Shown in pieces: positions 846 to 64,000 of a stretch of DNA of 64,000 nucleotides. The stretch's first letter is position 1; every line of letters begins with the position of its first letter. The stretch spans positions 1,981 to 65,980 of the forward strand of contig CASTST010000001.1 of NCBI GenBank assembly GCA_949451655.1, given 5' to 3'. The notes below the pieces were generated by a model. It had not been told where the DNA came from. It saw only the letters and a list, made by a program, of their open reading frames with translations, and did no database searches. The DNA is from an uncultured Eubacteriales bacterium (GTDB lineage Bacteria > Bacillota > Clostridia > Oscillospirales > CAG-272). The position numbers and the translations under genes were made by a program.

Positions 846-1539
846 GTTCCCCAGCAAAGGGAGCCTTCCCCAACTTTATATGCCTCCCCTGTGCTGGAGC
901 CGCGTAGCGGATCCTAGGGTGGTGGCGCAGCAAACTACTCTTATCTCAGCGCCCCCTTTGTGCAAGAGGTGGTGGCGCAGCAAACTACTCTTATCTCAGC
1001 GCCCCCTTGTGCAAAGGGGGGTGGCTCGCTGTAAGCGAGTCGGGGGGATTGTCTGTATATACTGCCGATTTGTAGTTTCTGCAAAATGATAGAATTACAA
1101 TCCCTCACCCGCTATCGCGGGAGCTCCCTTTGCACAAGGGAGCCTTTTTTTAAATTGGGAGTGCTACATGACAGCTCCCTTTTGCTGGGGGAACCTTTTT
1201 GTTTGTGCTATACGGAAGTTCCCTTTGCTGGGGGAGAGCCTACAATCAAGCTCTAAGCCTCCTTTGTGTCGGAGCCGCGTAGCGGATCCTAAGGTGGTGG
1301 CACAGCGTAAGCTGTGACGGAGGAATTGTCTCGCACATATCGCCGATTTGTAGTTCCTGCAAAATGATAGAATTACAATCCCTCAGTCATGCCGCTGGCA
1401 CGACAGCTCCCTTTACACAAGGGAGCCTTTTTAATGGGGGGCGCTATCGCGGGAGCTCCCCTGCTGGGGGAGGCTTTTTACATTGGGAGTGCTATTGCGG
1501 GATGCCCCTTTGCCGGGGAGCCTACAATCAAACTCTAAG
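846..1539 (+). repeat. Mosaic hairpin-repeat array R1 (2 full units)
   Basis: Cores GGGATTGT-N~45-ACAATCCC at 1045-1104 and 1322-1382, both in F orientation (CTGCCGATTTGTAG...AAAATGATAG). Each is flanked by G/C hairpins with TTGTGCAAA / TTTGCACAA loops. CCCCAGCAAAGGGG-type and GGAGCCGCGTAGCGGATCC-type hairpin modules fill the rest. Confidence 0.9.
918..1017 (+). repeat. 50-bp tandem duplication inside array R1
   Basis: GGTGGTGGCGCAGCAAACTACTCTTATCTCAGCGCCCCC..TTGTGCAA occurs twice head to tail (918-967 and 968-1017), differing only by small indels at the hairpin end. Confidence 0.85.
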
Positions 1540-3930: not shown

Positions 3931-4335
3931 GTTCCCATGTGAGCCTTTCCACCAGCTTTATATGCCCCCTTTGTGCTGGGGCCGTGCAGCGGATCCTAAG
4001 GTGGTGGCATGGCGCACTTCTCTACATCAACGCCTCCCAGTGAAGGAGTTTGCTACGCAAACTCCCGGGGAGGTGGCGCAGCACTTCATCTCCTTGTAAA
4101 GCCCCCCATGTGAGGACCTGCTGCGCAGTTCCGAGGGGTGCCGATATAATCGGCGGGGGGATTGTAAAACTGCCCGATTTGATGATCCTGCGAAATGATC
4201 GTATAAACAATCCCTCAGTCACAGCAAAGCTGTGACAGCTCCCTTTACACAAGGGAGCCTTTCCACCAGCTTTTTTCAACGCCCCCCTTGTGCAAAGGGG
4301 GGTGGCTCGCTGTAAGCGAGTCGGGGGGATTGTCT
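3931..4335 (+). repeat. Mosaic hairpin-repeat array R2 (1 full unit plus 1 half unit)
   Basis: Core at 4158-4214 (F, the GATCCTGCGAAATGATCGTATAA subtype). A left arm alone sits at 4281-4335 and ends right after GGGATTGTCT, 18 nt from the ygiQ stop. Confidence 0.9.
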
Positions 4336-4353
4336 AAAAGCGTGCTTCTTCTC

Positions 4354-6300
4354 CTATTTTCTTTTACCGCGGCGGCTACGCCCACCTTTGTTAACAGGAA
4401 ATTTTTTATTTGAAGCGCCCGCCTGCGAACGATTGTTAGACCTATCAGACTGGTTCTTAATTTTCTGGGTCTTCTGATTTCCTCCGGATTCTTTTCTGCT
4501 CCGGCTGGGACGAATCAGACAATCCGGACCGTATCCGATCAAATCCTCCCGCCCGCACCGGTGCAGGGCTTCCATCACCAGCCGGCGGTTTTCCGGTTTC
4601 CAATATTGCAGCAACGCCCGCTGCATCTGTTTTTCCTTATAATCTGTGGCAGTATACACTTTTTTGCCGGTTAGCGGATCCATTCCCGTATAATACATGA
4701 CCGTGGAAGCTGTGCCGGGAGTGGGATAAAAATCCTGCACCTGTTCGGGAGACAGTCCGATTCGTTTGATATACAGTGCCAATTCCACTGCATCGGACAA
4801 TCGGCTGCCCGGATGGCTGGACATAAGATAAGGTACCAGATACTGTTCCTTCCCCACCTGCTTCGTCAGCCGGAAAAACTTCTCCCGGAACCGGTCATAT
4901 ACACTGATATCCGGTTTTCCCATGCATCCCAGCACATGGGAAGTGCAGTGCTCCGGTGCAACCTTCAGCTGCCCGCTCACATGATCCTGCACAAGCTTTT
5001 TAAAGAAGGCATCGCTGCTGTCCTGCAGCATATAATCAAACCGGATTCCGCTGCGGATGAATACCTTTTTCACGCCGGGCACTGCCTCCACTGTCCGGAG
5101 CAGTTCTATGTACTCACCGTGATCCGCGTTCAGATGCTTACAAGGGGTTGGCACCAGACATCGCTTTCCCTGGCAAACGCCCCTTTCCAGCTGTTGCTTG
5201 CAGGCAGGATGGCGGAAATTCGCCGTGGGACCGCCAACATCATGAATATATCCCTTAAAATCCGGCATAGCTGCAATCAGCTCCGCTTCCCGGCGGACGC
5301 TTTCGATGCTTCTGCTGCGCACACTGCGTCCCTGATGAAAGGCAAGGGCGCAGAAATTACACCCGCCGAAGCAACCACGGTTATGGGTAATGGAAAATTT
5401 CACTTCGGAAATGGCAGGAACACCGCCGTCTTTGTCATACATAGGATGGACGGCACGCATGTAGGGCAATGCATACACCCGGTCCAGTTCCTCCTGCTCC
5501 AACGGGGGCATAGGGGGATTCTGCACCAGCATCCGATCCCCATAATATTCGGTTATAGCCTTGCCGCTGATGGCATCATTATTTTTATACTGAACAGCAA
5601 AAGCTTTCGCGTAGGCGGTCTTGTCCGTTTTCAGCAGATCATAATCAAAGGTTTCTTCCACTTTCGGATAATGGATTTCCTCATCCGCTTTACATAAATA
5701 TGCCGTGCCGCGCACGTCCCGGATTTTCTTTACCGGCACACCTTTATCCAACAGTTGGGCGATACGCAGTATAGATTTTTCTCCCATGCCGTAGGACAAA
5801 ATATCCGCCCGGCTGTCCACCAAAATACTGCGCCGCATCGCATTGCTCCAATAATCGTAATGGGCAAACCGACGCAGGGATGCTTCCAGTCCGCCGATAA
5901 TGATGGGCACATCACCGTATGCCTCCCGGATTCGGTTGCAGTAAACAATTACCGCCCGATCCGGCCGCATTCCTGCTTTTCCGCCGGGAGAATAATAATC
6001 ATATGTACGCTTTTTCTTAGAGACAGTATAGTGACTCACCATAGAATCAATGTTTCCGCTGGACACCAAAAATCCCAGACGGGGTTTGCCGAAGGTTTTC
6101 ATTGTCTGGCAGCTCTTATAATCAGGTTGAGGTAGCATTGCCACCACAAAGCCAGCGTCCTCCAGAACCCGGCTGATGATTGCGGCACCAAAAGATGGAT
6201 GATCCACATATGCATCTCCGCACACATACACAAAATCGGGCACATCCCGACCGGTATCATGCACCTCTTCCGGCGTTACCGGCAAAAATTTCATCTCCAT
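4354..6300 (-). CDS. ygiQ: YgiQ-family radical SAM protein (UPF0313)
   Basis: 648-aa ORF with an N-terminus typical of YgiQ ([26 protein letters not shown]) and a CxxxCxxC-type radical SAM cluster region (GCFGGCNFC). It ends in a Lys/Arg-rich tail. Confidence 0.9.
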
Positions 6301-6350: not shown

Positions 6351-6597
6351 CGGAGCAGCATTCCAAACTTAAGCCGCCTTTGTGCAAAAGGAGGTGGCGC
6401 GGCGTTAGCCGTGACGGAGGAATTGTCTGCATATACTGCCGATTTATAGATCCTGCAAAATGATTGTAGGACAATCCCTCAGTCACAGCAAAGCTGTGAC
6501 AGCCCCCTTTGCACAAGGGGGCCTTTTAACGTAGGTATATGCTTCGCGGAGCGAGCCCCCTATGGAACCGCGTAGCGAATCCTCACACATGGGAGCC
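6351..6597 (+). repeat. Mosaic hairpin-repeat array R3 (1 unit)
   Basis: Core at 6419-6478 (F). Arms are CCTTTGTGCAAAAGG, GGCGCGGC-GTTA-GCCGTGAC, GTCACAGC-AAA-GCTGTGAC and CCCCCTTTGCACAAGGGGG, followed by a GGAACCGCGTAGCGAATCC module. Confidence 0.9.
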
Positions 6598-7076: not shown

Positions 7077-7392
7077 AAGCCTCCTCCCAGCAAAAGGGGG
7101 ACGGCACGCAGCACAGTCTATAAGCCTCCCATGTGAGGACCTGCTGCGCAGTTCCGAGGTGGTGCCGATACAAGCACCCACTCTAAGCCCCCCTTGTGCA
7201 AAGGGGGGTGCCGATGCAATCGGCGGGGGGATTGTCTGCACATACTACCGATTTGCTGATCCTGCAAAATGATCGTATAAACAATCCCCCAGTCTCCGCT
7301 GCGCGAAGCCAGCCCCCTATGGAGCCACGCAGTGGATCCTCACACGGGGGCCTTTTAACGTGGGTATATGCTTCGCAACAACCCCATAGGGA
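7077..7392 (+). repeat. Mosaic hairpin-repeat array R4 (1 unit)
   Basis: Core at 7228-7288 (F). The left arm is GCCGAT-GCA-ATCGGC plus GGGGGGATTGT. Flanking GAGGACCTGCTGCGCAGTTCCGAGG and GGAGCCACGCAGTGGATCC modules. Confidence 0.9.
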
Positions 7393-9123: not shown

Positions 9124-9604
9124 TTACGTTAAAGCCTCCCCCAGCAAAGGGGGGCAGCGCGCAGCTACCACCTCACCAAAGCCCCCCTTGTGCTGGAGCC
9201 GCGCAGCGGATCATAGGGTGGCGGCGCGGCTGCAAACTCACACCATACCCTAAGCCTCCCCCCAGCAAAGGGGGGTGGTGCGGCAAACTGCTCTTATCTC
9301 AGCGCCCCCCTTGTGCAAAGGGGGGTGGCTCGCTTAAGCGAGTCGGGGGGATTGTCTGTATATACTGCCGATTTGTAATTTCTGCAAAATGATAAAAGAA
9401 ACAATCCCTCAGTCATGCCAGCGGCATGACAGCTCCCTTTACACAAGGGAGCCTTTTAACGTGAGTGCTTGCTTCGCGGGAGCCAGCCCTCCCTTTTTGC
9501 CTGGGGAGCCTTTTTAGATTTTGCTCCACAGGAGCTCCCTTTACTGGGGGGAGGCTCACGCGCCCACCCCTATGGATCACTGCGCAAATCCTTGCATGGG
9601 AGCC
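9124..9604 (+). repeat. Mosaic hairpin-repeat array R5 (1 unit plus many accessory hairpins)
   Basis: Core at 9348-9408 (F). The left arm is nearly identical to those at 1001-1052 and 4281-4335. The array abuts the stop codon of the downstream gene at 9605. Confidence 0.9.
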
Positions 9605-10195
9605 TTATTCCTCTTGCACGTCCCCGCTCTCCGGACGCACACGAATCGTCATTTTTGTCCGCTGGGTAATCATTCCCCGCAGCTCCACTGCATAATCCAA
9701 CTCCAGAGTTCCGCCGGTTTCTTCCATATTATTTTCGATTTTCCTTCCGATCACACACAGATCCACCTGTCCGAAAGGCGTATCATATGTACTGTACTGC
9801 CGTACATTCGGTTCCACTGTGAAAACAGTGTTCATATCTCCGCTGCGGCTGACTGTAATATGACTGCTGCTTCCCTTTGGAAAAACAAGACTAACTTTTG
9901 TCGGTGCTGCACCTTCCTCATCCTCTATCGTTTCTATATAGGTCAGATGCAACAGACCTTCCTGCAGAGACAGTGTTCCCTCGCTGAAAAGGGTGCATGC
10001 ACCGCTTTCTTCCGATGCAGAATGTGCATGGGGCAGAGCATCGTCTTCTTCCAGATCGTCAAAGCCATCTGCTTCGCTGGTAAAGAGACTTTCCTTTCCC
10101 ATGTTGCGCTGGTGGCTTTCCACTTCGATGATTACAGCCAGACCTTCCTGCGCCTCTTTTTCCTCTGTCTCATATTCAAAAATCGGCAAGTCCAC
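9605..10195 (-). CDS. DUF1934-like beta-barrel protein with an acidic insertion
   Basis: ORF 9605..10234 (TTG). GTG at 10195 has GGAGAGGGG upstream and is preferred. The C-terminal half resembles the DUF1934/YwiB family (TLELDYAVELRGMITQRTKMTIRV). Confidence 0.6.
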   Translation of the reverse strand: MDLPIFEYETEEKEAQEGLAVIIEVESHQRNMGKESLFTSEADGFDDLEEDDALPHAHSASEESGACTLFSEGTLSLQEGLLHLTYIETIEDEEGAAPTKVSLVFPKGSSSHITVSRSGDMNTVFTVEPNVRQYSTYDTPFGQVDLCVIGRKIENNMEETGGTLELDYAVELRGMITQRTKMTIRVRPESGDVQEE

Positions 10196-11230: not shown

Positions 11231-11556
11231 AAGTCCCCTTGTACTGGAGCCGCGTAGCGGATCCTAGGGTGCTGTCGCGATAGCACCCTACTTTTATAGG
11301 CTCCCTTGTGCAAAGGGAGCTGGATCCGCGAAGCGGAGACTGAGGGATTGTTATACGATCATTTTGCAGGAATTACAAATCGACAGTATGTGCAAACAAT
11401 CCCCCCGCCGATTGCATCGGCACCCCCCTTTGCACAAGGGGGGCTTAAGTTGGTGTGGTTTGCCGTTCCGCACAAGGGAGGCTTTTGTTTGGTTGGAGCC
11501 ACGCAGTGGATCCTCACAAGGGAGCCTATAAAAGTTGGGTGCTGCACAGGAGAGCC
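11231..11556 (-). repeat. Mosaic hairpin-repeat array R6 (1 unit)
   Basis: Core at 11344-11403 in R orientation (GGGATTGTTATACGATCATTTTGCAGG...CAAATCGACAG...ACAATCCC). Arms are the reverse complement of the F layout. Confidence 0.9.
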
Positions 11557-16373: not shown

Positions 16374-16628
16374 AAAGGCTCCCATGTGAGGATCCACTGC
16401 GTGGCTCCATAGGGAGCTGGCGCGTGCCTCCTCTATAAGGCTCCCTTGTGCAAAGGGAGCTGGCACAGCTTTGCTGTGACTGAGGGATTGTAATACTATC
16501 ATATTGCAGGAAATACAAATCGCCAGCATGCGCAGACAATCCCCCCGCCGATTGCATCGGCACCCCCCTTTGCACAAGGGGGGCTAAGAACGGGTGCTTG
16601 CTCCGCGACAGCTCCCTTTGGTGGGGAA
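16374..16628 (-). repeat. Mosaic hairpin-repeat array R7 (1 unit)
   Basis: Core at 16484-16543 (R), preceded by a CCCATGTGAGGATCCACTGCGTGGCTCCATAGGG module. Confidence 0.9.
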
Positions 16629-17138: not shown

Positions 17139-17488
17139 AAGGCTCCTGCGAAGCATATACCCACGTTAAAAGGCTCCCCCCAGCAAAGGGAGCCGTTGCG
17201 ACGCGCCAAACCCATCAGCTTAAGCCCCCCTTGTGCAAAGGAAACTGGTTCGGCGCAGCTCCCCACTTAATAAAAGGCTCCCCCCAGCAAAGGGAGCTCC
17301 CGCGGAGCGGGTGAGGGATTGTCCTATGCTATCATTTTTGATAACCTACAAACAAATCGGCAGCATGTGCAGACAATCCCTCCGTCTCGCCTACGGCGAT
17401 CCACCCCCCTTTGCACAAGGGGGGCTAAGAGTAGGTGCTTGCATCGGCACTCACTCGGAACTGCGTAGCAGGTCCTCACAAGGGAGCC
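17139..17488 (-). repeat. Mosaic hairpin-repeat array R8 (1 unit)
   Basis: Core at 17315-17380 (R, slightly longer core), with several CCCCCCAGCAAAGGGAG hairpins upstream. Confidence 0.9.
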
Positions 17489-20935: not shown

Positions 20936-21250
20936 AAGGCTTCCAACAAAGGGAGCACGAAGCATAAACTATACAAAAGGCTCCCTTGTGAGGATCTTCT
21001 ATGCAGTTTCGAGCGGGTGCCGATGCAAGCACTCACCAAACTAAAGCCCCCCTTGTGCAAAGGGGGGTGCCGATGCAATCGGCGGGGGGATTGTTTCGGT
21101 AGATTGCCGATTTATAGATTATTCAAAATGATAGTTTTACAATCCCTCAGTCACGGCTTTGCCGTGACAGCTCCCTTTACACAAGGGAGCCTTATGGAGG
21201 GAGTATGCGACGGCTCCCTATAGAGCCACGCAGTGAATCACAAGGGAACC
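20936..21250 (+). repeat. Mosaic hairpin-repeat array R9 (1 unit)
   Basis: Core at 21087-21146 (F). Arms are GCCGAT-GCA-ATCGGC and GTCACGGC-TTT-GCCGTGAC. Confidence 0.9.
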
Positions 21251-25950: not shown

Positions 25951-26203
25951 TTTCCCCTAGTAAAGGAAAGCGCACAGCGCAACTCCCCACTTAATAAAAA
26001 CCTCCCCCCAGCAAAGGAAGGCGAGTTTTGTGCAACTCCCTACTTAATAAAAGCCTCCCTTGTGCAAAGGGAGGTGGCACGGCGGAGCCGTGACGGAGGG
26101 ATTGTTTAAATAAACTGTCGATTTGCAGATTATTTAAAATGATAGAAGGGACAATCCCTCAGTCACAGCTTTGCTGTGACAGCTCCCTTTGCTGGGGGGA
26201 GCC
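25951..26203 (+). repeat. Mosaic hairpin-repeat array R10 (1 unit)
   Basis: Core at 26098-26158 (F). Arms are GGCACGGC-GGAG-CCGTGAC and GTCACAGC-TTT-GCTGTGAC. The terminal hairpin is of the TTTGCTG-loop type. Confidence 0.9.
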
Positions 26204-29404: not shown

Positions 29405-29675
29405 AAAGGCTCTGTGCATAAATATTATAACGCTCCCTTTGCTGGGGAAAGCCTACAATCAAACTCAAAGCCTCCTTTGTGCAAAAGGAGGTGGCATACC
29501 GTAGGTATGACGGAGGAATTGTCTCGCACATGCTGCCGATTTGTAGATTATCCAAAATGATAGAATTACAATCCCCCCGACATGCCTTTCAGGCATGCCA
29601 CCCCCTCGGAACTGCGCAGCAGGTCCTCACATGGGGGGCTTTGGTGGGGAAGTAGGCTCCCTCTGCTGGGAAGCC
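29405..29675 (+). repeat. Mosaic hairpin-repeat array R11 (1 unit, left-type arms on both sides)
   Basis: Core at 29515-29575 (F). The right flank ACAATCCCCCCG-ACATGCC..GGCATG-..GGAACTGCGCAGCAGGTCC.. is the reverse complement of the arm type normally found on the left. Confidence 0.9.
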
Positions 29676-31120: not shown

Positions 31121-31503
31121 AAAAAGGCTCCCCCAGCAAAGGGAGAACGCCTCAGGTACTTATCAACAAAAAGCCTCCCCCCGGCAAAGGGAGGTGGCAC
31201 ATCAAGTTATCACCAAACTAAAAGGCTCCCTTGTGCAAAGGGAGCTGTCACGGCAAAGCCGTGACTGAGGGATTGTCTTTGCTTTCATTTTGTAATTCCT
31301 TCAAATCGGCAGTATGCGCAAACAATCCCTCCGAGTTTTGCTGCGCAAAACCCACCCCCCTTTGCACAAGGGGGGCTTTGGTGGGTGAAAGCTTGGCGAT
31401 CTCCTCCCTTTGCTGTGGAGCCTTTTTTGTTTGTGCTGTGCAGGGGCTCCCTTTACTGGGGGGAGCTTTTGTTAGTACAGCATCGTGCGGCATACGGGAG
31501 CCT
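31121..31503 (-). repeat. Mosaic hairpin-repeat array R12 (1 unit)
   Basis: Core at 31269-31329 (R, the GAAAGCAAAG subtype shared with 41003-41062). Arms are GTCACGGC-AAA-GCCGTGAC and GTTTTGC-TGC-GCAAAAC. Confidence 0.9.
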
Positions 31504-33477: not shown

Positions 33478-33832
33478 AGGATCCCATGTGCAAATCACAC
33501 CAAACAAAACCCCCCTTATGCTGTACCAATAAAAAGGCTCCCTTGTGCAATACCACCAAATAAAAAGCCCCCCTTGTGCAAAGGGGGCTCCCGCGAAGCG
33601 GGTGAGGGATTGTTATACAATCATTTTGGATAATCTTCAAATCGACAGTATATACAAACAATCCCCCCGTCACAGCAAAGCTGTGACACCCCCTCGGAAC
33701 TGCGCAGCAGGTCCTCACATGGGGGGCTTTGGTGGGGAAGGAGGCTCCCTTTGCTGGGGGGAGCCTACAAAAATTGGATGTTATCGCGACAGCTCCCTAT
33801 GGAGCCACACAGTGGATACTCACAAGGGAGCC
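33478..33832 (-). repeat. Mosaic hairpin-repeat array R13 (1 unit)
   Basis: Core at 33606-33665 (R). Preceded by three truncated half-hairpins of the type G/C-run + TTGTGCAA + ..CACCAAA(C/T)AAAA. Confidence 0.9.
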
Positions 33833-34506: not shown

Positions 34507-34798
34507 TTTCACCAAACAAAAAAGGCTCCAGCAAAGAGAGCTGTCACAGCAAAACATATTAGTAGAAGCCCCCCTTGTGCAAATCCCACCAAACAAAAGC
34601 CTCCCTTGTGCAAAGGGAGGTGGCGCGGCGTAAGCCGTGGCGGAGGGATTGTCTGCACGAACTGCCGATTTGTAGATTATCTAAAATAATAGCAGGGACA
34701 ATCCCTCAGTCGCTATCGCGACAGCTCCCTTTACACAAGGGAGCCTATAAAAGTTGGGTGCTATGCTATCGCGACACCCCCCTTTGCACAAGGGGGGC
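34507..34798 (+). repeat. Mosaic hairpin-repeat array R14 (1 unit)
   Basis: Core at 34645-34705 (F). Arms are GGCGCGGC-GTAA-GCCGTGGC and GTCGC-TAT-CGCGAC. Confidence 0.9.
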
Positions 34799-40523: not shown

Positions 40524-41372
40524 AAGGCTCCCCCAGCAAAAGGAGTTTCCATATAGCACAAACTTCAAAAGGCTCTCTTGCGCTATAAGGAATATGACGT
40601 ATCAAATTACCACCATACTCAAGCCTCCCCCAAACAAAGGAAAGTGGCGCAGCGCAAACTTCCACTTCCTTCATAAGCCCCCCCATGTGAGGACCTGCTG
40701 CGCAGTTCCGAGGGGGTGGCTTTCCATATGCGAGTCGGGGGGATTGTCTGCATATACTGCCGATTTTGAGATCATTCAAAATGATAGTAAAACAATCCCT
40801 CAGTCTCCGCTACCGCGGAGCCAGCTCCCTTTACACAAGGGAGCCTTTATAAATTGGGGAGCGCTATCGCGCCAGCTACCACCTCACCAAAGCCCCCTTA
40901 TACTGAAGCCACATAGCGGAAGGTGGTGGCGTAGTAAGTTTTCGCCCCATTCAAGCCTCCCCCCAGCAAAGGGGGGGTGGGTTTTGCGCAGCAAAACTCG
41001 GAGGGATTGTTTGCGCATACTGCCGATTTGAAGAAATACAAATTGAAAGCAAAGACAATCCCTCACCCGCTTCGCGGGAGCTCCCTTTGCACAAGGGAGC
41101 CTTTTAAAGTTATGTGCTACACAGGAGTTCCTTTTGCTGGGGGAGCCTATAATCAAGCCCTAAGCCTCCCCTGTGCAAGGGGAGGTGTCAGCTAAGCGTA
41201 GCGTTGCTGACGGAGGGGTTGTTTCGCACATATCGCCACTTTATGGTTCCTGCGAAATGATAGTTTTACAATCCCTCAGTCACGGCTAAGCCGTGCCAGA
41301 TCCTTTACTGGAGGGAGCCTTTTGGTTTGATGCTTCATGACAGCTCCCGATAAAGCCACGCAGTGAATTCCC
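40524..41372 (+). repeat. Mosaic hairpin-repeat array R15 (3 units in tandem)
   Basis: Cores at 40739-40799, 41003-41062 and 41215-41275 (the last degenerate, with GGGGTTGT), all F. This is the longest array in the window and fills the dnaN-remB gap. Confidence 0.9.
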
Positions 41373-44674: not shown

Positions 44675-45097
44675 AAAAGCCCCCTTATCGGATGGAACCA
44701 ATATAAAAAGGCATCCCCCAGTAAAGGGTGCCTTCAAAAACATACCAAGCCTCCTTTGTGCAAAAGGAGGTGGCACAGCGTAAGCTGTGACGGAGGAATT
44801 GTCTCGCACATATCGCCGATTTGTAGTTTCTGCAAAATGATAGAATTACAATCCCTCAGTCTCCGCTGCGCGGATCCAGCTCCCTTTGCACAAGGGAGCC
44901 TTTTTAATGGGGGGCGCTACGTGACGCTCCCTAGGATTCGCATAGCGGATCCTCACATGGGAGCCTTTTTGCGGGTACCGCTTCACGACATCTTCCTTTA
45001 CTGGGGGTGTCTTCAAAAAAACATACTTTAAGGCCCCCTTTGCACAAGGGGGCCTTATAACGTGGGTGCTATGTGACAGTTCCCTTTGCCAGGGAAT
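44675..45097 (+). repeat. Mosaic hairpin-repeat array R16 (1 unit)
   Basis: Core at 44795-44855 (F). The unit at 44749-44905 is a clean exemplar, and its core plus left arm nearly match the copy at 1300-1384. Confidence 0.9.
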
Positions 45098-47657: not shown

Positions 47658-47958
47658 AAAGGCTCCCCTCAGCAAAGGGAGCTGTTGCATCAAATCACAC
47701 CATACTCAAGCCTCCCTTGTGCAAAGGGAGGTGGTTTTTGCTGTGCAAAAACCGGAGGGATTGTAAAGCGATCATTTTGCAGGAATTGCAAATCAACAAT
47801 ATAGCTTTGACAATCCCTCAGTCTCCGCTACGCGAAGCCAGCTCCCTTTGCACAAGGGAGCCTATAAAAGTTGGGCTCCATTGCGACTGCTCCCTTTGAT
47901 AGGGGGGAGGCTTTTAACGTGGTGAGGATTCACTGCGCGGCTCCAGCAGAAAGGAGTC
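47658..47958. repeat. Mosaic hairpin-repeat array R17 (1 unit with core inverted relative to its arms)
   Basis: Core at 47757-47817 reads GATCATTTTGCAGG...CAAATCAACA (R). The arms are in F layout: GGAGGTGG-hairpin-CCGGAGGGATTGT on the left and ACAATCCCTCAG-hairpin-AGCTCCC on the right. Confidence 0.85.
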
Positions 47959-48010
47959 TTGGAGAGGTGGAAGCTATCCCAGCAAAAAAAGCTTCTGCAC
48001 AGGCAAACGA

Positions 48011-48039
48011 AAAAGAACCGCCATATGGCGGTTCTTTTT
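48011..48039. terminator. Bidirectional intrinsic terminator after cysS
   Basis: AAAAGAACCGCCA-TA-TGGCGGTTCTTTT, a 12-bp stem with A/T runs on both sides, 7 nt from the cysS stop. Confidence 0.85.
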
Positions 48040-50420: not shown

Positions 50421-50472
50421 AAAATCCCTTCTTCCACAAAATAAAATTTACAATTTTTACCATATCATTGTG

Positions 50473-50890
50473 TTTCCTCAGTAAAGGGAATACATAGCAC
50501 ATGCTTAGACAACCCCTCCGTCAGCATCGCTATGCTCAGCTGACACCTCCTCGGGAGTTCGCGAAGCGAATCTCCTCCACTGGGGAGGCTAAGATTTGGT
50601 GAAGGGCTTTCCAGTAAAGAGAGGAGAAACATCTGCACTGACTTCATAAGGCGCCCCCCAGCAAAGGGAGCTGGCACGGTACAAGCTCCACCTTCCTTTA
50701 TAGCCTCCCTTGTGCAAAGGGAGGTGGGTTTTGCGCAGCAAAACGCGGAGGGATTGTATGCATGTACTGTCAACTTGAAGATTATTAAAAATGAAAGTAG
50801 AAACAATCCCTCACCCGCTTCGCGGGAGCTCCCTTTGCACAAGGGAGCCTTATAAAAGTAAATGCTACGTGATAGTTCCCTTTGCAGGAG
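50473..50890 (+). repeat. Mosaic hairpin-repeat array R18 (1 unit plus 1 partial unit)
   Basis: Core at 50750-50810 (F). A partial copy in R orientation at ~50490-50550 retains ~15 nt of core plus one arm (ACAACCCCTCCGTCAGC..GCTGACACCTCC), related to the arm at 41185-41222. Confidence 0.85.
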
Positions 50891-50966
50891 ACTGGGTATG
50901 GCAAAATCTCTGCCGTTATTCCCTATATAGTAGCATAGCACTCCTATGAAGGTATCCCATAAACCT

Positions 50967-53302: not shown

Positions 53303-53725
53303 GCCACCCCCAGCTGGAGTCGCGCTGCAAGTTCCCACCTAACTTTATAGGCTCTCCCAGCAAAGGGAGCTGTCACGGTGCAGGCTCCGTCCTTTTTAGC
53401 CTCCCTTGTGCAAAGGGAGGTGGCACGCCGTAGGCGTGACGAAGGGATTGTCTGTACATACTGCCGATTAGTAGATTATCCAAAATGATAGTTTTACAAT
53501 CCCCCCGCCGATTGTATCGGCACCCCCTCTTGCTGGGGGCTTCCAAACAAACCTAAGCCTCCTGTGTGAGGATCCGCTGCGCGGCTCCAAAAGGAGGTGG
53601 CGCGGCGTTAGCCGTGACGGAGGAATTGTCTGTACATACTGCTGATTTGTAGATTATCTAAAATGATAGTATTACAATCCCTCACCCGCTACGCGGGAGC
53701 TCCCTTTGCACAAGGGAGCCTTTTT
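53303..53725 (+). repeat. Mosaic hairpin-repeat array R19 (2 units)
   Basis: Cores at 53444-53503 (F, left-type arms on both sides) and 53622-53681 (F). The array ends GGGAGCCTTTTT, 12 nt from the serS stop. Confidence 0.9.
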
Positions 53726-57022: not shown

Positions 57023-57187
57023 AGCACAGACTAAAAGGCTCCCTTGTGCAAAGGGAGCTGGCTCCGCGTAGCGGAGACTGAGGGATTGTTATACTATCAT
57101 TTTGAATAATCTTCAAATCGGCAGTATGTGCAAACAATTCCTCCGTCTTGCCTTACGGCAAGCCACCTCCTTTTGCACAAAGGAGGC
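57023..57187 (-). repeat. Mosaic hairpin-repeat unit R20
   Basis: Core at 57082-57141 (R). The first ~110 nt, including the 14-nt lead-in AGCACAGACTAAAA, are nearly identical to R21. Confidence 0.9.
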
Positions 57188-58150: not shown

Positions 58151-58413
58151 GCACAGACTAAAAAGGCTCCCTTGTGCAAAGGGAGCTGGCTCCGCATAGC
58201 GGAGACTGAGGGATTGTTATACTATCATTTTGAATAATCTTCAAATCGACAGTGTGTGCAGACAATCCCTCCGTGTTTTGCTGCGCAAAACCCACCTCCC
58301 TTTGCACAAGGGAGGCTTTGGTGAGGTGGTAACTTGGTGTGCCACCTCCTTTTGCTAGGAGGAGGCTTTAGTATGGCGGTAGCTGGCGCGTCACTTTCCT
58401 CTACCGGGTGAGC
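58150..58413 (-). repeat. Mosaic hairpin-repeat array R21 (1 unit)
   Basis: Core at 58210-58269 (R). It is a direct repeat of R20 across the right-type arm and core, with a different distal arm (GTTTTGC-TGC-GCAAAAC). Confidence 0.9.
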
Positions 58414-58425
58414 CTTTGTTCCCGC

Positions 58426-58457
58426 AAAAAACGCTTTGCGTATGCAAAGCGTTTTTT
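58426..58457 (-). terminator. Intrinsic terminator after jag
   Basis: AAAAAACGCTTTGC-GTAT-GCAAAGCGTTTTTT, a 14-bp stem flanked by A and T runs, 3 nt from the jag stop. Confidence 0.85.
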
Positions 58458-61843: not shown

Positions 61844-62270
61844 AAAAGGCTCCTCGTGCGATGCTAACCAAACGTAAAAAGTCTCCCCCGGTAAAGGGGG
61901 CGCACCGTACTCCACCAACCTTAAAGCCTCCCAGCAAAGGGAGCTCCCACGGAGCGTCCAAACTTTATAAGGCTCCCTTGTGTAAAGGGAGCTGTCACAG
62001 CTTTGCTGTGACTGAGGGATTGTCTATGCTATCATTTTGAATAATCTATAAATCGGCAATCCACCGAAACAATCCCTCCGGGTTTTGCGTAGCAAAACCC
62101 ACCTCCCTTTGCACAAGGGAGGCTTCAGTTTAGTGGGTGCTTGCATCGGCACCTCCTTTACACAAGGGGGGCTTATAACGTAAGCGCTTGCTCCGCGGGA
62201 CCCCCCTTTTGCTGGGGCTTTTTGTTTGGCGAAAATCGCACAAGGGAGCCTAACGGAGCGAATCCCCTCC
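61844..62270 (-). repeat. Mosaic hairpin-repeat array R22 (1 unit)
   Basis: Core at 62016-62076 (R). Arms are GTCACAGC-TTT-GCTGTGAC and GGTTTTGC-GTA-GCAAAACC, with multiple accessory hairpins on both sides. Confidence 0.9.
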
Positions 62271-63486: not shown

Positions 63487-64000
63487 CTCACTTGTGGATC
63501 CACTGTGTGGCTCCACAGGGAAGTGTTGCGTAGAACCTACGTTAAAAGGCCCCCATGTGAGGATCCGCTACGCGGCTCCATAGGGGGCTGTCGACCAAGC
63601 GTAGCGACGTCGACTGGGGGATTGTTTCTACTATCATTTTGGATAACCTGCAAATCGGCAGCATGTACAGACAATTCCTCCGTCTTGATCGCTATGCTTG
63701 GGCAAGACACCTCCTTTTGCACAAAGGAGGCTTTAGTATGTTGGTAGCTGTCGCGTAGCACCCACGATAAAAGGCTCCCCCCAGCAAAGAGACTTCCGCG
63801 GAGCACAAACATGAAAAGGCCCCCTTGTGCAAAGGGGGCTGTCACAGCTTTGCTGTGACTGAGGGATTGTAATTCTATCATTTTGCAGGATCTACAAATC
63901 GACAGCATGTGCGAGACAATCCCTCCGTCACGGCTGCGCCGTGCCACCTCCCTTTACACAAGGGAGGCTTAGGGTTTGATTGCAGCCCCCCTTTGCACAA
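63487..64000 (-). repeat. Mosaic hairpin-repeat array R23 (2 units, runs off the window)
   Basis: Cores at 63618-63678 and 63863-63923 (both R). The array is still in progress at base 64000. Confidence 0.9.

Follow-up and report, generated by a model that had tools for sequence, protein, structure and literature searches.

What kind of element is a nested palindrome whose stems differ from copy to copy and whose short motifs are kept? The question was raised by a locus of about 150 bp in the dnaA–dnaN–gyrBA region of an uncultured gut Clostridiales bacterium. The window (the whole stretch of DNA analysed) is 64,000 nucleotides long. The original prediction described two outer hairpins (H1 and H4) enclosing two variable hairpins (H2 and H3), a box and its complement, and an A/T-rich core; the palindrome was confirmed at 44749-44900 with its parts in the order claimed (Table 1). 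The two arms are of distinct types, L and R. The exemplar H1 consists of a G·T pair at the base (G44749·T44771), eight pairs (44750-44757 with 44763-44770) and an effective loop GTGCA (44758-44762). A conserved G·A mismatch, typical of L arms, is found at the second position of H2. Read from L to R, H4 (44879-44899) with its CTTTTT tail resembles an intrinsic terminator.

A covariance model was trained on 15 copies and then run on the window, returning 28 full and two partial copies. All 28 full units are intergenic, each consists of two inverted arms, and all share a single related core and a single L-to-R polarity; 26 of the 28 combine one L arm with one R arm. They cover 4,331 bp, which is 35% of the intergenic DNA and 6.8% of the window as a whole, and a unit is present in 22 of the 26 spacers that are 150 bp or longer. 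The adjoining housekeeping genes include dnaA, dnaN, gyrB, gyrA, cysS, truB and serS. Counted as motifs in the window, TTTGCACAA/TTGTGCAAA occurred 45 times (1.0 expected) and TTGTGCAAAGGG-N15-35-GGGATTGT 30 times (0 expected). Comparison of the whole window with Rfam 15 gave no match at the gathering score, and at E <= 10 only chance-level matches were obtained around the unit. Integron attC sites follow promoterless cassette genes, close to an integron integrase; no integrase was present in the window, and the units adjoin housekeeping genes. The repeat family was not found described in the published literature on DUF559, YcjD, Vsr-like nucleases, Oscillospiraceae REPs and Clostridia MITEs.

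Table 1. Parts of the exemplar unit and further copies of the repeat in the window; scores are those of the covariance model.
Feature	Position	Strand	Score (bits)	Basis or remark
Exemplar unit	44749-44900, then CTTTTT tail to 44905	+		read from sequence
H1, L-arm outer hairpin	44749-44771	+		sequence; alignment columns 1-23
H2, variable hairpin GGCACAGC-GTAA-GCTGTGAC	44772-44791	+		sequence
Left box GAGGAATTGT (family consensus GAGGGATTGT)	44793-44802	+		sequence
Asymmetric A/T-rich core, 45 nt	44803-44847	+		same slot as DUF559 gene in full-length elements
Right box ACAATCCCTC, complement of left box	44848-44857	+		sequence
H3, R-arm variable hairpin GTCTCCGC-TGC-GCGGATCC	44859-44877	+		sequence
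H4, R-arm outer hairpin GCTCCCTT-TGCAC-AAGGGAGC, then C + T5 run	44879-44905	+		
Degenerate partial copy adjoining exemplar	44911-45057	-	22.6	
Solo outer hairpin GGCCCCC-TTGTGCAAA-GGGGGCC	45029-45057	-		beside exemplar
Two tandem units	1000-1144; 1257-1427	+	150.8; 133.0	second with long alternative outer hairpin
Unit; partial single-arm copy	4101-4259; 4281-4376	+	102.1; 39.8	
Unit	6373-6523	+	166.3	
Unit, alternative outer hairpin in R arm	7187-7352	+		
Unit	9304-9453	+	162.8	
Unit	11299-11444	-	152.8	
Unit	16439-16584	-	152.4	
Unit	17276-17425	-	124.9	
Unit	21046-21191	+		co-directional with flanking genes (one of two such)
Unit	26053-26203	+		co-directional with flanking genes; R-arm loop TTTGCTGGG
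Unit, two L-type arms, one with alternative outer hairpin	29470-29639	+		
Unit	31224-31376	-	162.1	
Unit	33567-33727	-	117.2	
Unit	34599-34745	+	154.7	
Three units, spacer downstream of dnaN	40677-40845; 40957-41101; 41164-41319	+		related strains: one unit
Unit, divergent core	47710-47862	+ from arms		model scores equal on both strands
Unit	50703-50849	+	144.8	
Two tandem units	53399-53540; 53557-53720	+		first with L+L arms
Unit, highest score of all copies	57037-57187	-	174.6	
Unit	58165-58316	-	169.6	
Unit	61971-62123	-	157.8	
Two units	63548-63731; 63818-63968	-	98.5; 166.9	

The claim that stem sequences change and stay complementary was borne out. In an alignment of 117 distinct copies, which was itself fitted to the model, paired cells made up 96.6% (82% in shuffles), and the covariation score was 0.347 compared with 0.109 after shuffling (reached in none of 500 shuffles) and about 0.05-0.07 with the partners slid. 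Two-sided changes were found at every modelled pair of H2 (7/7) and H3 (8/8); the H1 and H4 stems showed two-state swaps. The box stem changed on both sides at one of ten pairs, in one sequence, and is thus a conserved inverted repeat. In an independent count of hairpins, 362 distinct arms contained 145 H2 stem types, and contiguous Watson–Crick pairs averaged 6.0 (3.1 in shuffles).

The outer loops had been called invariant, which is too strong: the exact 9-mer was present in 35 of 56 arms, the remainder carrying a single C-to-T change (TTGTGTAAA; seven arms), a long alternative hairpin (eight) or CCAGCAAA-type and other variant loops (six; CTGTGCAAG at 41216). Although not strictly invariant, the sequences of the loops and of the GGGATTGT/ACAATCCC box are retained across many genera; the outer loop and box stay fixed, whereas the H2 stems and the core vary freely. 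The 43-nt core of the original prediction is conserved in this lineage, but elsewhere measures from 1 to >100 nt or is a gene. Because the pattern of varied stems and fixed motifs holds across many genera, the hairpins are under constraint. This part of the proposal of structural selection stands, and a trans partner that recognises the fixed motifs is plausible, with a DUF559 protein as a candidate; a reading as RNA is disfavoured. GNA triloops were found in 162 of the 362 inner hairpins (148 closed by C-G) and the complementary TNC loops in four, and the base of the outer hairpin is a G·T pair in 321 of the 362 arms. In both arms it is the outside-to-centre strand that carries the GNA loops and the G·T pair. 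C-GNA-G loops are known from stable DNA mini-hairpins and are unlike the usual stable RNA loops.

Kissing loops or an H1:H4 duplex had also been suggested. The duplex is predicted by a single-strand fold. Stem position 6, however, pairs in about 10% between the arms compared with 95-96% within each hairpin, since the L and R arms differ conservedly; at position 4 the between-arm pairing is 60% of units compared with 96-97% inside the hairpin. Local pairing of H1 is 91-98% (127 units). The C/T loop variant was barely coordinated between H1 and H4 (combinations 40, 32, 28 and 22), which speaks against kissing loops, and the complementarity of the two loops arises because the arms are inverted repeats. 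The covariation therefore supports local H1 and H4 hairpins over a duplex or kissing loops.

In many Oscillospirales the same two arms enclose a DUF559 gene (~120 amino acids) where the core would be. Of 115 loci selected solely by the arm pattern, five encode DUF559 (Pfam E 1e-31), with the gene precisely framed by one L arm and one R arm. Conversely, among 52 non-redundant metagenome loci selected solely by the protein, the L arm abutted the start codon in 32 and the R arm lay at the stop in 36. The loci examined included 43 non-redundant full-length elements. DUF559 was the framed gene in more than 40 non-redundant cases and the sole gene found framed by the arms. The full-length junctions read GGAGGGATTGT-n-ATG at the start, and at the end the codons ..KQSLSQL lead into ACAATCCCTCAG. 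In these copies the left box contains the Shine–Dalgarno sequence directly before the start codon and the right box codes the final residues (..QSL..).

Three diverged DUF559 clades (49-66% identity) were found with the same arm design and other fixed motifs, the outer loops being TATCA, TTG and AGAG and the boxes GGGTGGAA, GATGAGGGTAAT and GGATGAGGGA; such co-divergence of arms and protein would follow equally from simple linkage. Some DUF559 genes lie between two elements and not within one (L192 and L208). Neither the window nor about 200 kb from close relatives contained a DUF559 gene, and none was found among viral loci that total 561 kb and carry 97 arms; the existence of a trans-acting source in this genome is therefore an assumption. 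The core was considered as a remnant of the gene and this was rejected (local alignment score 12, compared with 11.7 ± 1.4 in shuffles); as the core lacks similarity to the gene, its origin by deletion stays a proposal.

Pfam and NCBIfam searches with the framed protein returned only DUF559/PRK09767, without a known transposase. A model of the protein was predicted with a pLDDT of 89. Its nearest solved folds in Foldseek were 3HRL (DUF559) and then the catalytic domain of I-Bth0305I (3R3P; E 1e-4, TM-score 0.83 normalised to target length), with Vsr further down. D51, E62, D64 and H68 are invariant in 59 DUF559 homologues. Judged from the predicted fold, the framed protein is a Vsr-like PD-(D/E)XK nuclease whose relatives include a homing enzyme. 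Libraries of defence systems and phages gave only weak matches, to the nuclease domain. PD-(D/E)XK nucleases only hydrolyse, and none is known to serve as a sole transposase.

The unit is probably a gene-less miniature of nuclease-encoding palindromic selfish elements that inhabit gut Clostridia (Oscillospirales and relatives) and act as DNA. In the full-length element the L arm comprises an A-run, an outer hairpin with the fixed loop, TG, a free-sequence hairpin and the box with the ribosome-binding site. The middle is the ~120-aa DUF559 gene for the Vsr-like PD-(D/E)XK endonuclease, and the R arm comprises the box complement over the last codons, a free-sequence hairpin, the outer hairpin and a T-run. 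The window units have both arms, with 43-45 nt of A/T-rich filler where the gene would be, and this presumed deletion derivative would itself have multiplied into almost every intergenic spacer. The arms would fold as hairpins on the strand running 5'-to-3' from the outside to the centre; a nuclease supplied in trans may recognise the fixed motifs (loop and box) and cut, and host break repair and recombination between copies would then copy, convert and re-array the units. The architecture, the link to the gene, the co-divergence of arms and protein and the pattern of turnover are shown by the data; cleavage of these sites by the nuclease, and spread driven by it, are inferred. A broader claim is made more tentatively: these may represent a new class of mobile or selfish DNA in which the sole protein, a 120-aa DUF559 nuclease, recognises folded DNA arms and gene-less miniatures are able to colonise almost all intergenic spacers of a genome. 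If so, a function would be assigned to the large uncharacterised DUF559 family, and the explanation could extend to CGTC-tagged REPs or to the dispersed repeat beside E. coli ycjD.

Turnover was followed in related strains. The same spacer contained one, two or three tandem units in closely related strains, and whole H2/H3 hairpins had been swapped between close strains at orthologous units with identical cores; at the orthologue of the exemplar, other hairpins occupy the place of H3. This pattern fits break repair. No consistent direct repeat indicating target-site duplication was found at 124 elements, the flanks of which are an A-run and a T-run, mirror images of each other. A megablast gap search at 11 strain loci gave no clean filled-versus-empty site, and the spacer alignments revealed nothing beyond gain or loss of tandem units and swaps of cassettes. 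With no transposase precedent and no clean filled/empty site, the nuclease reading leaves dispersal to new spacers unexplained.

The units are antisense to the flanking genes in 16 of 18 cases (p = 0.0013), and their orientation tracks the gene strand across three strand switches inside 64 kb; it follows transcription rather than replication. This bias implies that transcription matters and leaves room for a role at the RNA level. The trend was alike in other genomes, 7 versus 3, which is not significant, and full-length copies showed no bias with respect to their upstream neighbours (28 versus 30, by a crude ORF method). The R-arm end fits the terminator pattern but faces against the flanking genes in 16 of 18 units. 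The canonical terminators of these genes are separate and lie upstream of the units; a role of the units as intrinsic terminators of the flanking genes was rejected on both grounds. None of the units in the 40-59 kb interval contained a match to a consensus promoter, and an extended -10 seen by eye in the core (TGATAGAAT) was dropped because it varies between copies. Three further readings, whose motifs are not general across copies, were also discarded: a CsrA-binding or Shine–Dalgarno sponge, a Chi-like AGCGG in the hairpins and an IHF site in the core.

Four other explanations were weighed. It is conceivable, although unlikely, that an older arm repeat spread by other means and that DUF559 is a homing-type gene parasitising the centre of the GGGATTGT/ACAATCCC palindrome. 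The box palindrome would then be the enzyme's own cleavage site, destroyed by insertion of the gene, and the window units would not have been produced by the nuclease but would be alleles that are either immune or invaded and decayed. The gene is exactly central in a palindrome of 16-20 bp, near-uninterrupted centres exist at other loci (cores of 1-9 nt at L008, L078, L081 and L024), and in its fold the protein comes closest to a homing endonuclease, which cleaves a pseudopalindrome as a dimer. The genes are also about 25-fold rarer than the elements, and conversion of hairpin cassettes is expected from repeated cutting and repair. This explanation leaves the spread of the arms unaccounted for. 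The outer loops, far from the centre, also differ by protein clade; the core lengths are continuous from 1 to >100 nt with no trace of a gene remnant; and no occupied/empty allele pair at one locus was found at the 11 strain loci or in the spacer alignments. A structured RNA serving the host (a 3'-UTR stabiliser, processing site, terminator/insulator or small RNA), the hairpins of which DUF559 borrows as UTRs, is improbable. The GNA loops, the G·T base pair and the G·T wobbles are mirrored on the two arms and not placed on one transcript strand, and C-G-closed GNA triloops are generally known as a signature of DNA hairpins. The strong covariation, the RNA fold z-score of -7.5, the terminator-like R-arm outer hairpin with its T-run, the orientation tracking three strand switches in 64 kb and a box that contains a Shine–Dalgarno sequence, the complement of which follows the stop codon, would all suit an RNA; yet upstream of the units the flanking genes keep canonical terminators of their own, most units oppose the genes with their strong terminator end, the core is dispensable and no Rfam family matches. 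One to three copies per spacer among close strains is also unlike a tuned regulatory site.

The remaining two explanations concern other sources of hairpins. REP/REPIN-like or IS200/IS605-derived hairpins mobilised by an HUH tyrosine transposase (RAYT/TnpA) whose gene lies elsewhere in the genome, with DUF559 as a passenger, appear very improbable. High-copy extragenic hairpin repeats in inverted pairs without target duplications would be expected of such a system, and the inner hairpin of the L arm, which reads CGTC-stem-loop-stem-GCCA on the bottom strand, resembles the head and CCA tail of CGTC-tagged REPs (PMC3733652), but in more than 40 independent cases no gene other than DUF559 was found between the arms. 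IS200/IS605 ends are same-strand hairpins, whereas every asymmetric feature here is mirrored, and the orientation follows transcription, not replication. The same mirroring, together with the three flips of orientation with gene strand in 64 kb, separates the units from IS200/IS605 miniatures (PATEs). Scarcely credible is an origin of the stems as by-products of palindrome-making mutation (template switching or quasi-palindrome correction) in AT/GC-skewed spacers, with neither selection nor function. The stems are indeed nearly perfect (0.055 mismatches per hairpin), and identical stems with AAA or TTT loops indicate hairpin flipping. Such mutation does not account for 9-nt loops and a 10-nt box fixed in many genera, the fixed L/R polarity, the approximately 40:1 excess of GNA over TNC loops or the precise framing of a conserved gene.

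If the link between arms and nuclease holds, DUF559, a very common protein family, gains a testable role; the framed clade alone contains more than 8,000 clusters at 90% identity, and the family includes E. coli YcjD. Orphan hairpin repeats without a known transposase would gain a candidate class of enzyme. In abundant but uncultured gut Clostridia, a repeat that makes up about one third of the DNA between genes breaks assemblies of short reads, yields spurious gene calls, drives strain rearrangements and occurs in prophages. The arms are also a natural experiment in the design of DNA hairpins, with 145 stem sequences and C-GNA-G loops.

The preferred reading, a miniature of a nuclease-encoding element, was compared with known repeat systems. 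Correia elements (Neisseria), ERIC, BOX and RUP are likewise intergenic, 100-160 bp in length and present in both orientations, with long terminal inverted repeats. They and other MITEs are co-transcribed with their neighbours, have terminator- or promoter-like ends and correspond to a longer element that has lost its interior, features that the units would share. The L and R arms are terminal inverted repeats common to the units and a longer coding partner, the DUF559 element, as in MITEs. The present family differs in having no TA or other target duplication, in a full-length partner that encodes no known transposase and in arms conserved as structure, not as sequence. BIMEs of E. coli are mosaics of interchangeable hairpin types and fixed linkers, with binding roles for gyrase, IHF and Pol I. 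They share the modular hairpins, fixed linkers and occasional tandem clusters, and differ in their motifs and associated enzyme.

Homing endonuclease genes of the Vsr-like (EDxHD) family, either free-standing or borne by introns, such as I-Bth0305I (PMC3239194), share the nuclease fold (the second-best structural match), a central position of the gene in palindromic sequence and a turnover resembling gene conversion. DUF559 is here a bare 120-aa catalytic domain with no NUMOD/HTH DNA-binding region, and its presumed target is a dispersed spacer repeat, not a conserved host gene. The REPIN/REP–RAYT systems of Pseudomonas and E. coli (PMC3116915, PMC3733652) resemble the present family in their abundant extragenic hairpins replicating as an inverted pair, variable stems with fixed short motifs, absence of target duplications, and a gene for a small single-domain enzyme framed by the repeats, with repeat type and enzyme clade co-diverging. 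Here, however, the framed gene encodes a DUF559 nuclease, not an HUH tyrosine transposase, each arm has two hairpins and a box that doubles as ribosome-binding site or last codons, the hosts are Clostridia and the repeats are far denser, at about 7% of the sequence.

The CGTC-tagged REPs, among them dRS3 in Neisseria and RPE-4/-6 in Rickettsia, have no known mobilising enzyme (PMC3733652). Set against the verbal description of these repeats (PMC3733652), the bottom strand of the L-arm inner hairpin has the CGTC-stem-loop-stem-GCCA form, the R arms reading AGTC..GACA, and a head-to-head organisation is shared; the length of the stem and its A-T start match poorly. The one DUF559 structure solved, 3HRL (NGO0050), comes from Neisseria gonorrhoeae.

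The window comprises the dnaA-dnaN-gyrB-gyrA region in an uncultured bacterium from the gut (Pfam domains DnaA, DnaN, GyrB, GyrA, TruB, CysS and others), and JGI metagenome contigs are identical to it in sequence. The exemplar unit, located in the 653 bp truB-dnaA spacer, agrees exactly with the original prediction. A covariance model was built from 15 copies; the search with this model, which had been proposed as a check, identified 28 full and two partial copies in the window, and in every copy one strand outscored the other. The loop 9-mer TTGTGCAAA occurs 45 times (1.0 expected) and a composite pattern (loop, 15-35 nt, GGGATTGT) 30 times (0 expected). The 28 copies total 4,331 bp, corresponding to 6.8% of the window and 35% of its non-coding DNA. 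At least one copy is present in 22 of the 26 spacers of 150 bp or more, and none was found inside credible genes of the window. The coordinates of individual features are presented in the table.

Spurious ORFs of 130-160 aa were called across units, one of them annotated by JGI as a 145-aa 'gene'. The contig of locus L003 ends within the exemplar unit; short-read contigs break inside units. Despite the presence of dnaA, dnaN and gyrBA, the coding strand and the cumulative GC skew both change direction at ~14, ~34 and ~56 kb of the window. A single switch at dnaA is absent, and minus-strand genes occupy 45-57 kb, to the right of dnaA. This layout reflects either an unusual origin region or an assembly rearranged or mis-joined at repeats.

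Coordinates and motifs of individual features (window positions unless a locus is named)
Feature	Position	Remark
dnaA	43055-44470	minus strand
Exemplar unit	44749-44905	
Variant-loop arm	41216	CTGTGCAAG
Alternative outer hairpin	1257-1300	approximate unit end
Alternative outer hairpin	4101-4140	approximate unit end
Alternative outer hairpin	7310-7352	approximate unit end
Alternative outer hairpin	29600-29639	approximate unit end
Alternative outer hairpin	33690-33727	approximate unit end
Alternative outer hairpin	40677-40720	approximate unit end
Alternative outer hairpin	53557-53600	approximate unit end
Alternative outer hairpin	63548-63590	approximate unit end
Solo outer hairpin	45029-45057	GGCCCCC-TTGTGCAAA-GGGGGCC
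Solo outer hairpin	44710-44735	CCAGTAAA-loop variant
Flank module	1145-1170	
Flank module	9454-9475	
Flank module	21020-21045	
Spurious ORF	40594-41031	JGI 145-aa 'gene'
Spurious ORF	50465-50941	
Spurious ORF	63537-63947	
Bidirectional terminator	48010-48039	
Bidirectional terminator	58426-58457	
Block loss, related strain	L121, ~9509-10001	GCA_948988265.1 contig
E. coli K-12 ycjD locus	L222, 1351200-1351830	NC_000913.3
Diverged DUF559 clade	L071, L223	outer loop TATCA; box GGGTGGAA
Diverged DUF559 clade	L227	outer loop TTG; box GATGAGGGTAAT
Diverged DUF559 clade	L229	outer loop AGAG; box GGATGAGGGA

The covariation of the stems, as originally proposed, is genuine. Across an alignment of 117 distinct copies (window plus related strains), which leans towards the model, 96.6% of cells were paired (82% in shuffles), and the covariation score was 0.347 compared with 0.109 for shuffled alignments (reached by 0 of 500 shuffles) and 0.05-0.07 with slid partners. 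Two-sided changes were found at seven of seven pairs in H2 and eight of eight in H3, with up to four pair types; H1 and H4 showed two-state swaps, and the box stem changed on both sides at only one of ten pairs, in one sequence alone. An independent count over 362 distinct arms from all loci gave 145 different H2 stems, with a mean of 6.0 contiguous Watson-Crick pairs (3.1 shuffled).

The arms are not equivalent, 26 of the 28 units having one L arm, GCC(T/C)CC..GG(A/G)GG-TG-(hairpin with G.A mismatch)-CGGAGGGATTGT, and one R arm, GGC(T/C)CCC..GGGAGC-TG-(hairpin)-CTGAGGGATTGT. Because the arms differ, local hairpins can be told apart from a long H1:H4 duplex. Covariation does not support the duplex, though it is favoured by the single-strand thermodynamic fold: stem position 6 pairs in 95-96% of cases within the hairpin versus ~10% between arms, and position 4 in 96-97% versus 60%. 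Kissing loops, the other long-range contact envisaged, gain no support either, since the C/T variants of the H1 and H4 loops are barely coordinated. Covariation thus upholds the local H1 and H4 hairpins, and the structure originally proposed is partly right. The loops proved less uniform than the term 'invariant' had implied: the exact 9-mer is present in only 35 of the 56 window arms, seven carry TTGTGTAAA, six carry CCAGCAAA/TTTGCTGG-type or other variants and in eight the TTGTGCAAA hairpin is replaced by a nested longer one, CCCCC-ATGTGAGGACCTGCTGCGCAGTTCCGA-GGGGG. The replaced and variant-loop arms indicate that the outer hairpin consists of alternative modules.

Two outer hairpins stand solo, without the remaining unit. 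Semi-conserved mirror-image flank modules (TTT..TTGGTGNGTGCTTGC; GTGCCGATGCAAGCAC) lie outside the outer hairpins of most units; the repeats could belong to larger composite arrays.

A scan for the exact pattern, with each species represented by one genome, gave at least 115 stretches. Hosts among the matches listed are Oscillospiraceae, Faecousia, Acutalibacteraceae, Scatosoma, Christensenellales, Ruminococcus, Butyricicoccus and other MAGs, with one cultured isolate (Ruminococcaceae bacterium AM07-15). Arm design and fixed motifs are unchanged across these genomes, single arms also occur and the boxes lie between 1 nt and >100 nt apart. The A/T-rich core, taken originally as a general part of the unit, is lineage-specific, being present in only 12 of 115 other-genome loci among the matches listed.

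In five of the 115 loci listed, selected by arms only, a gene of 119-122 aa lies between the arms exactly at the core position; it encodes DUF559 (PF04480, E 1e-31). The L arm of these loci ends in GGAGGGATTGT, 1-3 bases 5' of the start codon, which implies that the box supplies the ribosome-binding site, and the last codons (..KQSLSQL) fall within the R-arm box and the beginning of H3. A protein-only metagenome scan yielded 52 non-redundant DUF559 loci; using strict patterns, an L arm abuts the start in 32 and an R arm lies at the stop in 36, and several of the remaining loci adjoin variant or neighbouring elements. The clade contains at least 8,000 clusters at 90% identity. Three diverged clades have other outer loops and boxes and the same architecture (A-run, pyrimidine/purine outer hairpin, TG, GAA-loop inner hairpin, RBS box, gene, mirror image). 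The structure model of DUF559 is confident (pLDDT 89); among solved folds, 3HRL (DUF559, Neisseria gonorrhoeae) and the homing endonuclease I-Bth0305I (catalytic domain) come nearest, with Vsr lower. D51, E62, D64 and H68 are invariant among 59 homologues.

The window units have both arms and the L-to-R polarity of the gene-bearing elements, and very probably are gene-less members of this DUF559 cassette family. They share one related filler of 43-45 nt, which indicates that the gene-less form itself multiplied; no similarity of the filler to the DUF559 gene was detected. The relation is the classical one of miniature and coding partner.

At two loci (L156, L168) the DUF559 gene is followed 3' by an R-arm box, one hairpin and an inverted box (ACAATCCCTCA-GTCAGCCGTCAGGCTGAC-TGAGGGGTTGT). 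These are two elements fused head-to-head via a shared hairpin, which hints at hairpin-mediated inversion or recombination. The arm pattern is also present in 65 viral or prophage stretches (L233-L297, IMG/VR), with several copies per contig; these 561 kb contain 97 arms and no DUF559 gene. The miniature form may travel between hosts in phages.

Related-strain loci covered 10 kb either side of dnaA. Gene sequences are 85-92% identical, with the alignments interrupted at unit-bearing spacers. In a comparison of L120-L130 with the window, the truB-dnaA and cysS-rbfA spacers of strains sharing identical flanks contain one, two or three units in tandem, with a 17-19-nt linker, CTAACAAAACAAACCTAA, between them; the spacer downstream of dnaN holds three units in the window versus one in other strains. 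In orthologous units with identical cores H2 and H3 differ outright (for example GTCACAGC-AAA-GCTGTGAC, GTCGAC-GAA-GTCGAC and a 25-nt version), and whole hairpin cassettes are therefore exchanged. Target duplications were absent among 124 elements, and a clean filled-versus-empty site was not found among 11 strain loci. This turnover fits frequent breakage and repair between copies; it does not account for the spread to new spacers. One related strain (L121) lacks the rbfA-DHH-truB block between cysS and dnaA and has parA/parB further upstream; the break points of this rearrangement fall in unit-bearing spacers.

GNA triloops are present in 162 of the 362 inner hairpins, 148 of them closed by C-G; GNNA loops account for a further 70 and the complementary TNC loops for four. 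C-GNA-G is a motif of unusually stable DNA mini-hairpins. A G.T pair lies at the outer-hairpin base in 321 of 362 arms. On both arms these features occupy the strand running 5' to 3' from outside to centre; this placement mirrors the inverted repeat, not a single transcript, and is evidence for action at the DNA level. A central cut followed by 5' resection would leave these strands as 3' single-stranded tails, and the placement would fit a nuclease acting at the box. No Rfam family matched, a further point in favour of DNA. Other evidence indicates that transcription matters. Read from L to R, the R-arm outer hairpin with its T-run has a terminator-like score. The terminator-like end faces against the genes in 16 of 18 units between co-directional genes (p = 0.0013), unit orientation flips with gene strand three times in the window and the trend in other genomes is alike (7 versus 3, not significant). 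The simplest reading is that terminators inserted in sense orientation are selected against. The flanking genes have retained canonical terminators of their own, and ordinary strong bidirectional ones (AAAAAGAACCGCC..GGCGGTTCTTTTT) lie between gene ends and units; termination of host genes thus does not require the units. The best explanation, taken whole, is probably action at the DNA level with the nuclease provided in trans.

The closest working analogy is REPIN/RAYT, where hairpins likewise form inverted pairs, stems vary while motifs stay fixed, target sites are not duplicated and the repeats frame a small enzyme gene. That gene encodes an HUH transposase in REPIN/RAYT and a PD-(D/E)XK nuclease here. 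A coding partner is a trait shared with MITEs, from which the unit differs by the absence of target duplication and of a known transposase. The DUF559 gene resembles homing endonuclease genes in fold and in lying at a palindrome centre, a putative cleavage site; allelic empty sites were not found. The L-arm inner hairpin resembles CGTC-tagged REPs, which 'apparently lack a dedicated transposase' (PMC3733652), as a lead only. No published description of the unit family, or of a DUF559 link to dispersed palindromes, was found in literature of incomplete coverage. The family is widespread, nuclease-linked and palindromic, and apparently undescribed; that it constitutes a truly new class of mobile DNA is possible but less likely than not. 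DUF559 proteins are 14-fold enriched among predicted targets in a programmed-inversion survey (PMC9881135), which fits genes framed by inverted repeats. In E. coli, the DUF559 gene ycjD has its start codon inside a perfect hairpin, CACCTCATTCTGACAA..TTGTCAGAATGAGGTG, on the 3' arm. A stretch of 261 bp around the 3' end of this gene has a median of 16 matching places per E. coli genome; ycjD is therefore a second DUF559 gene next to a dispersed repeat.
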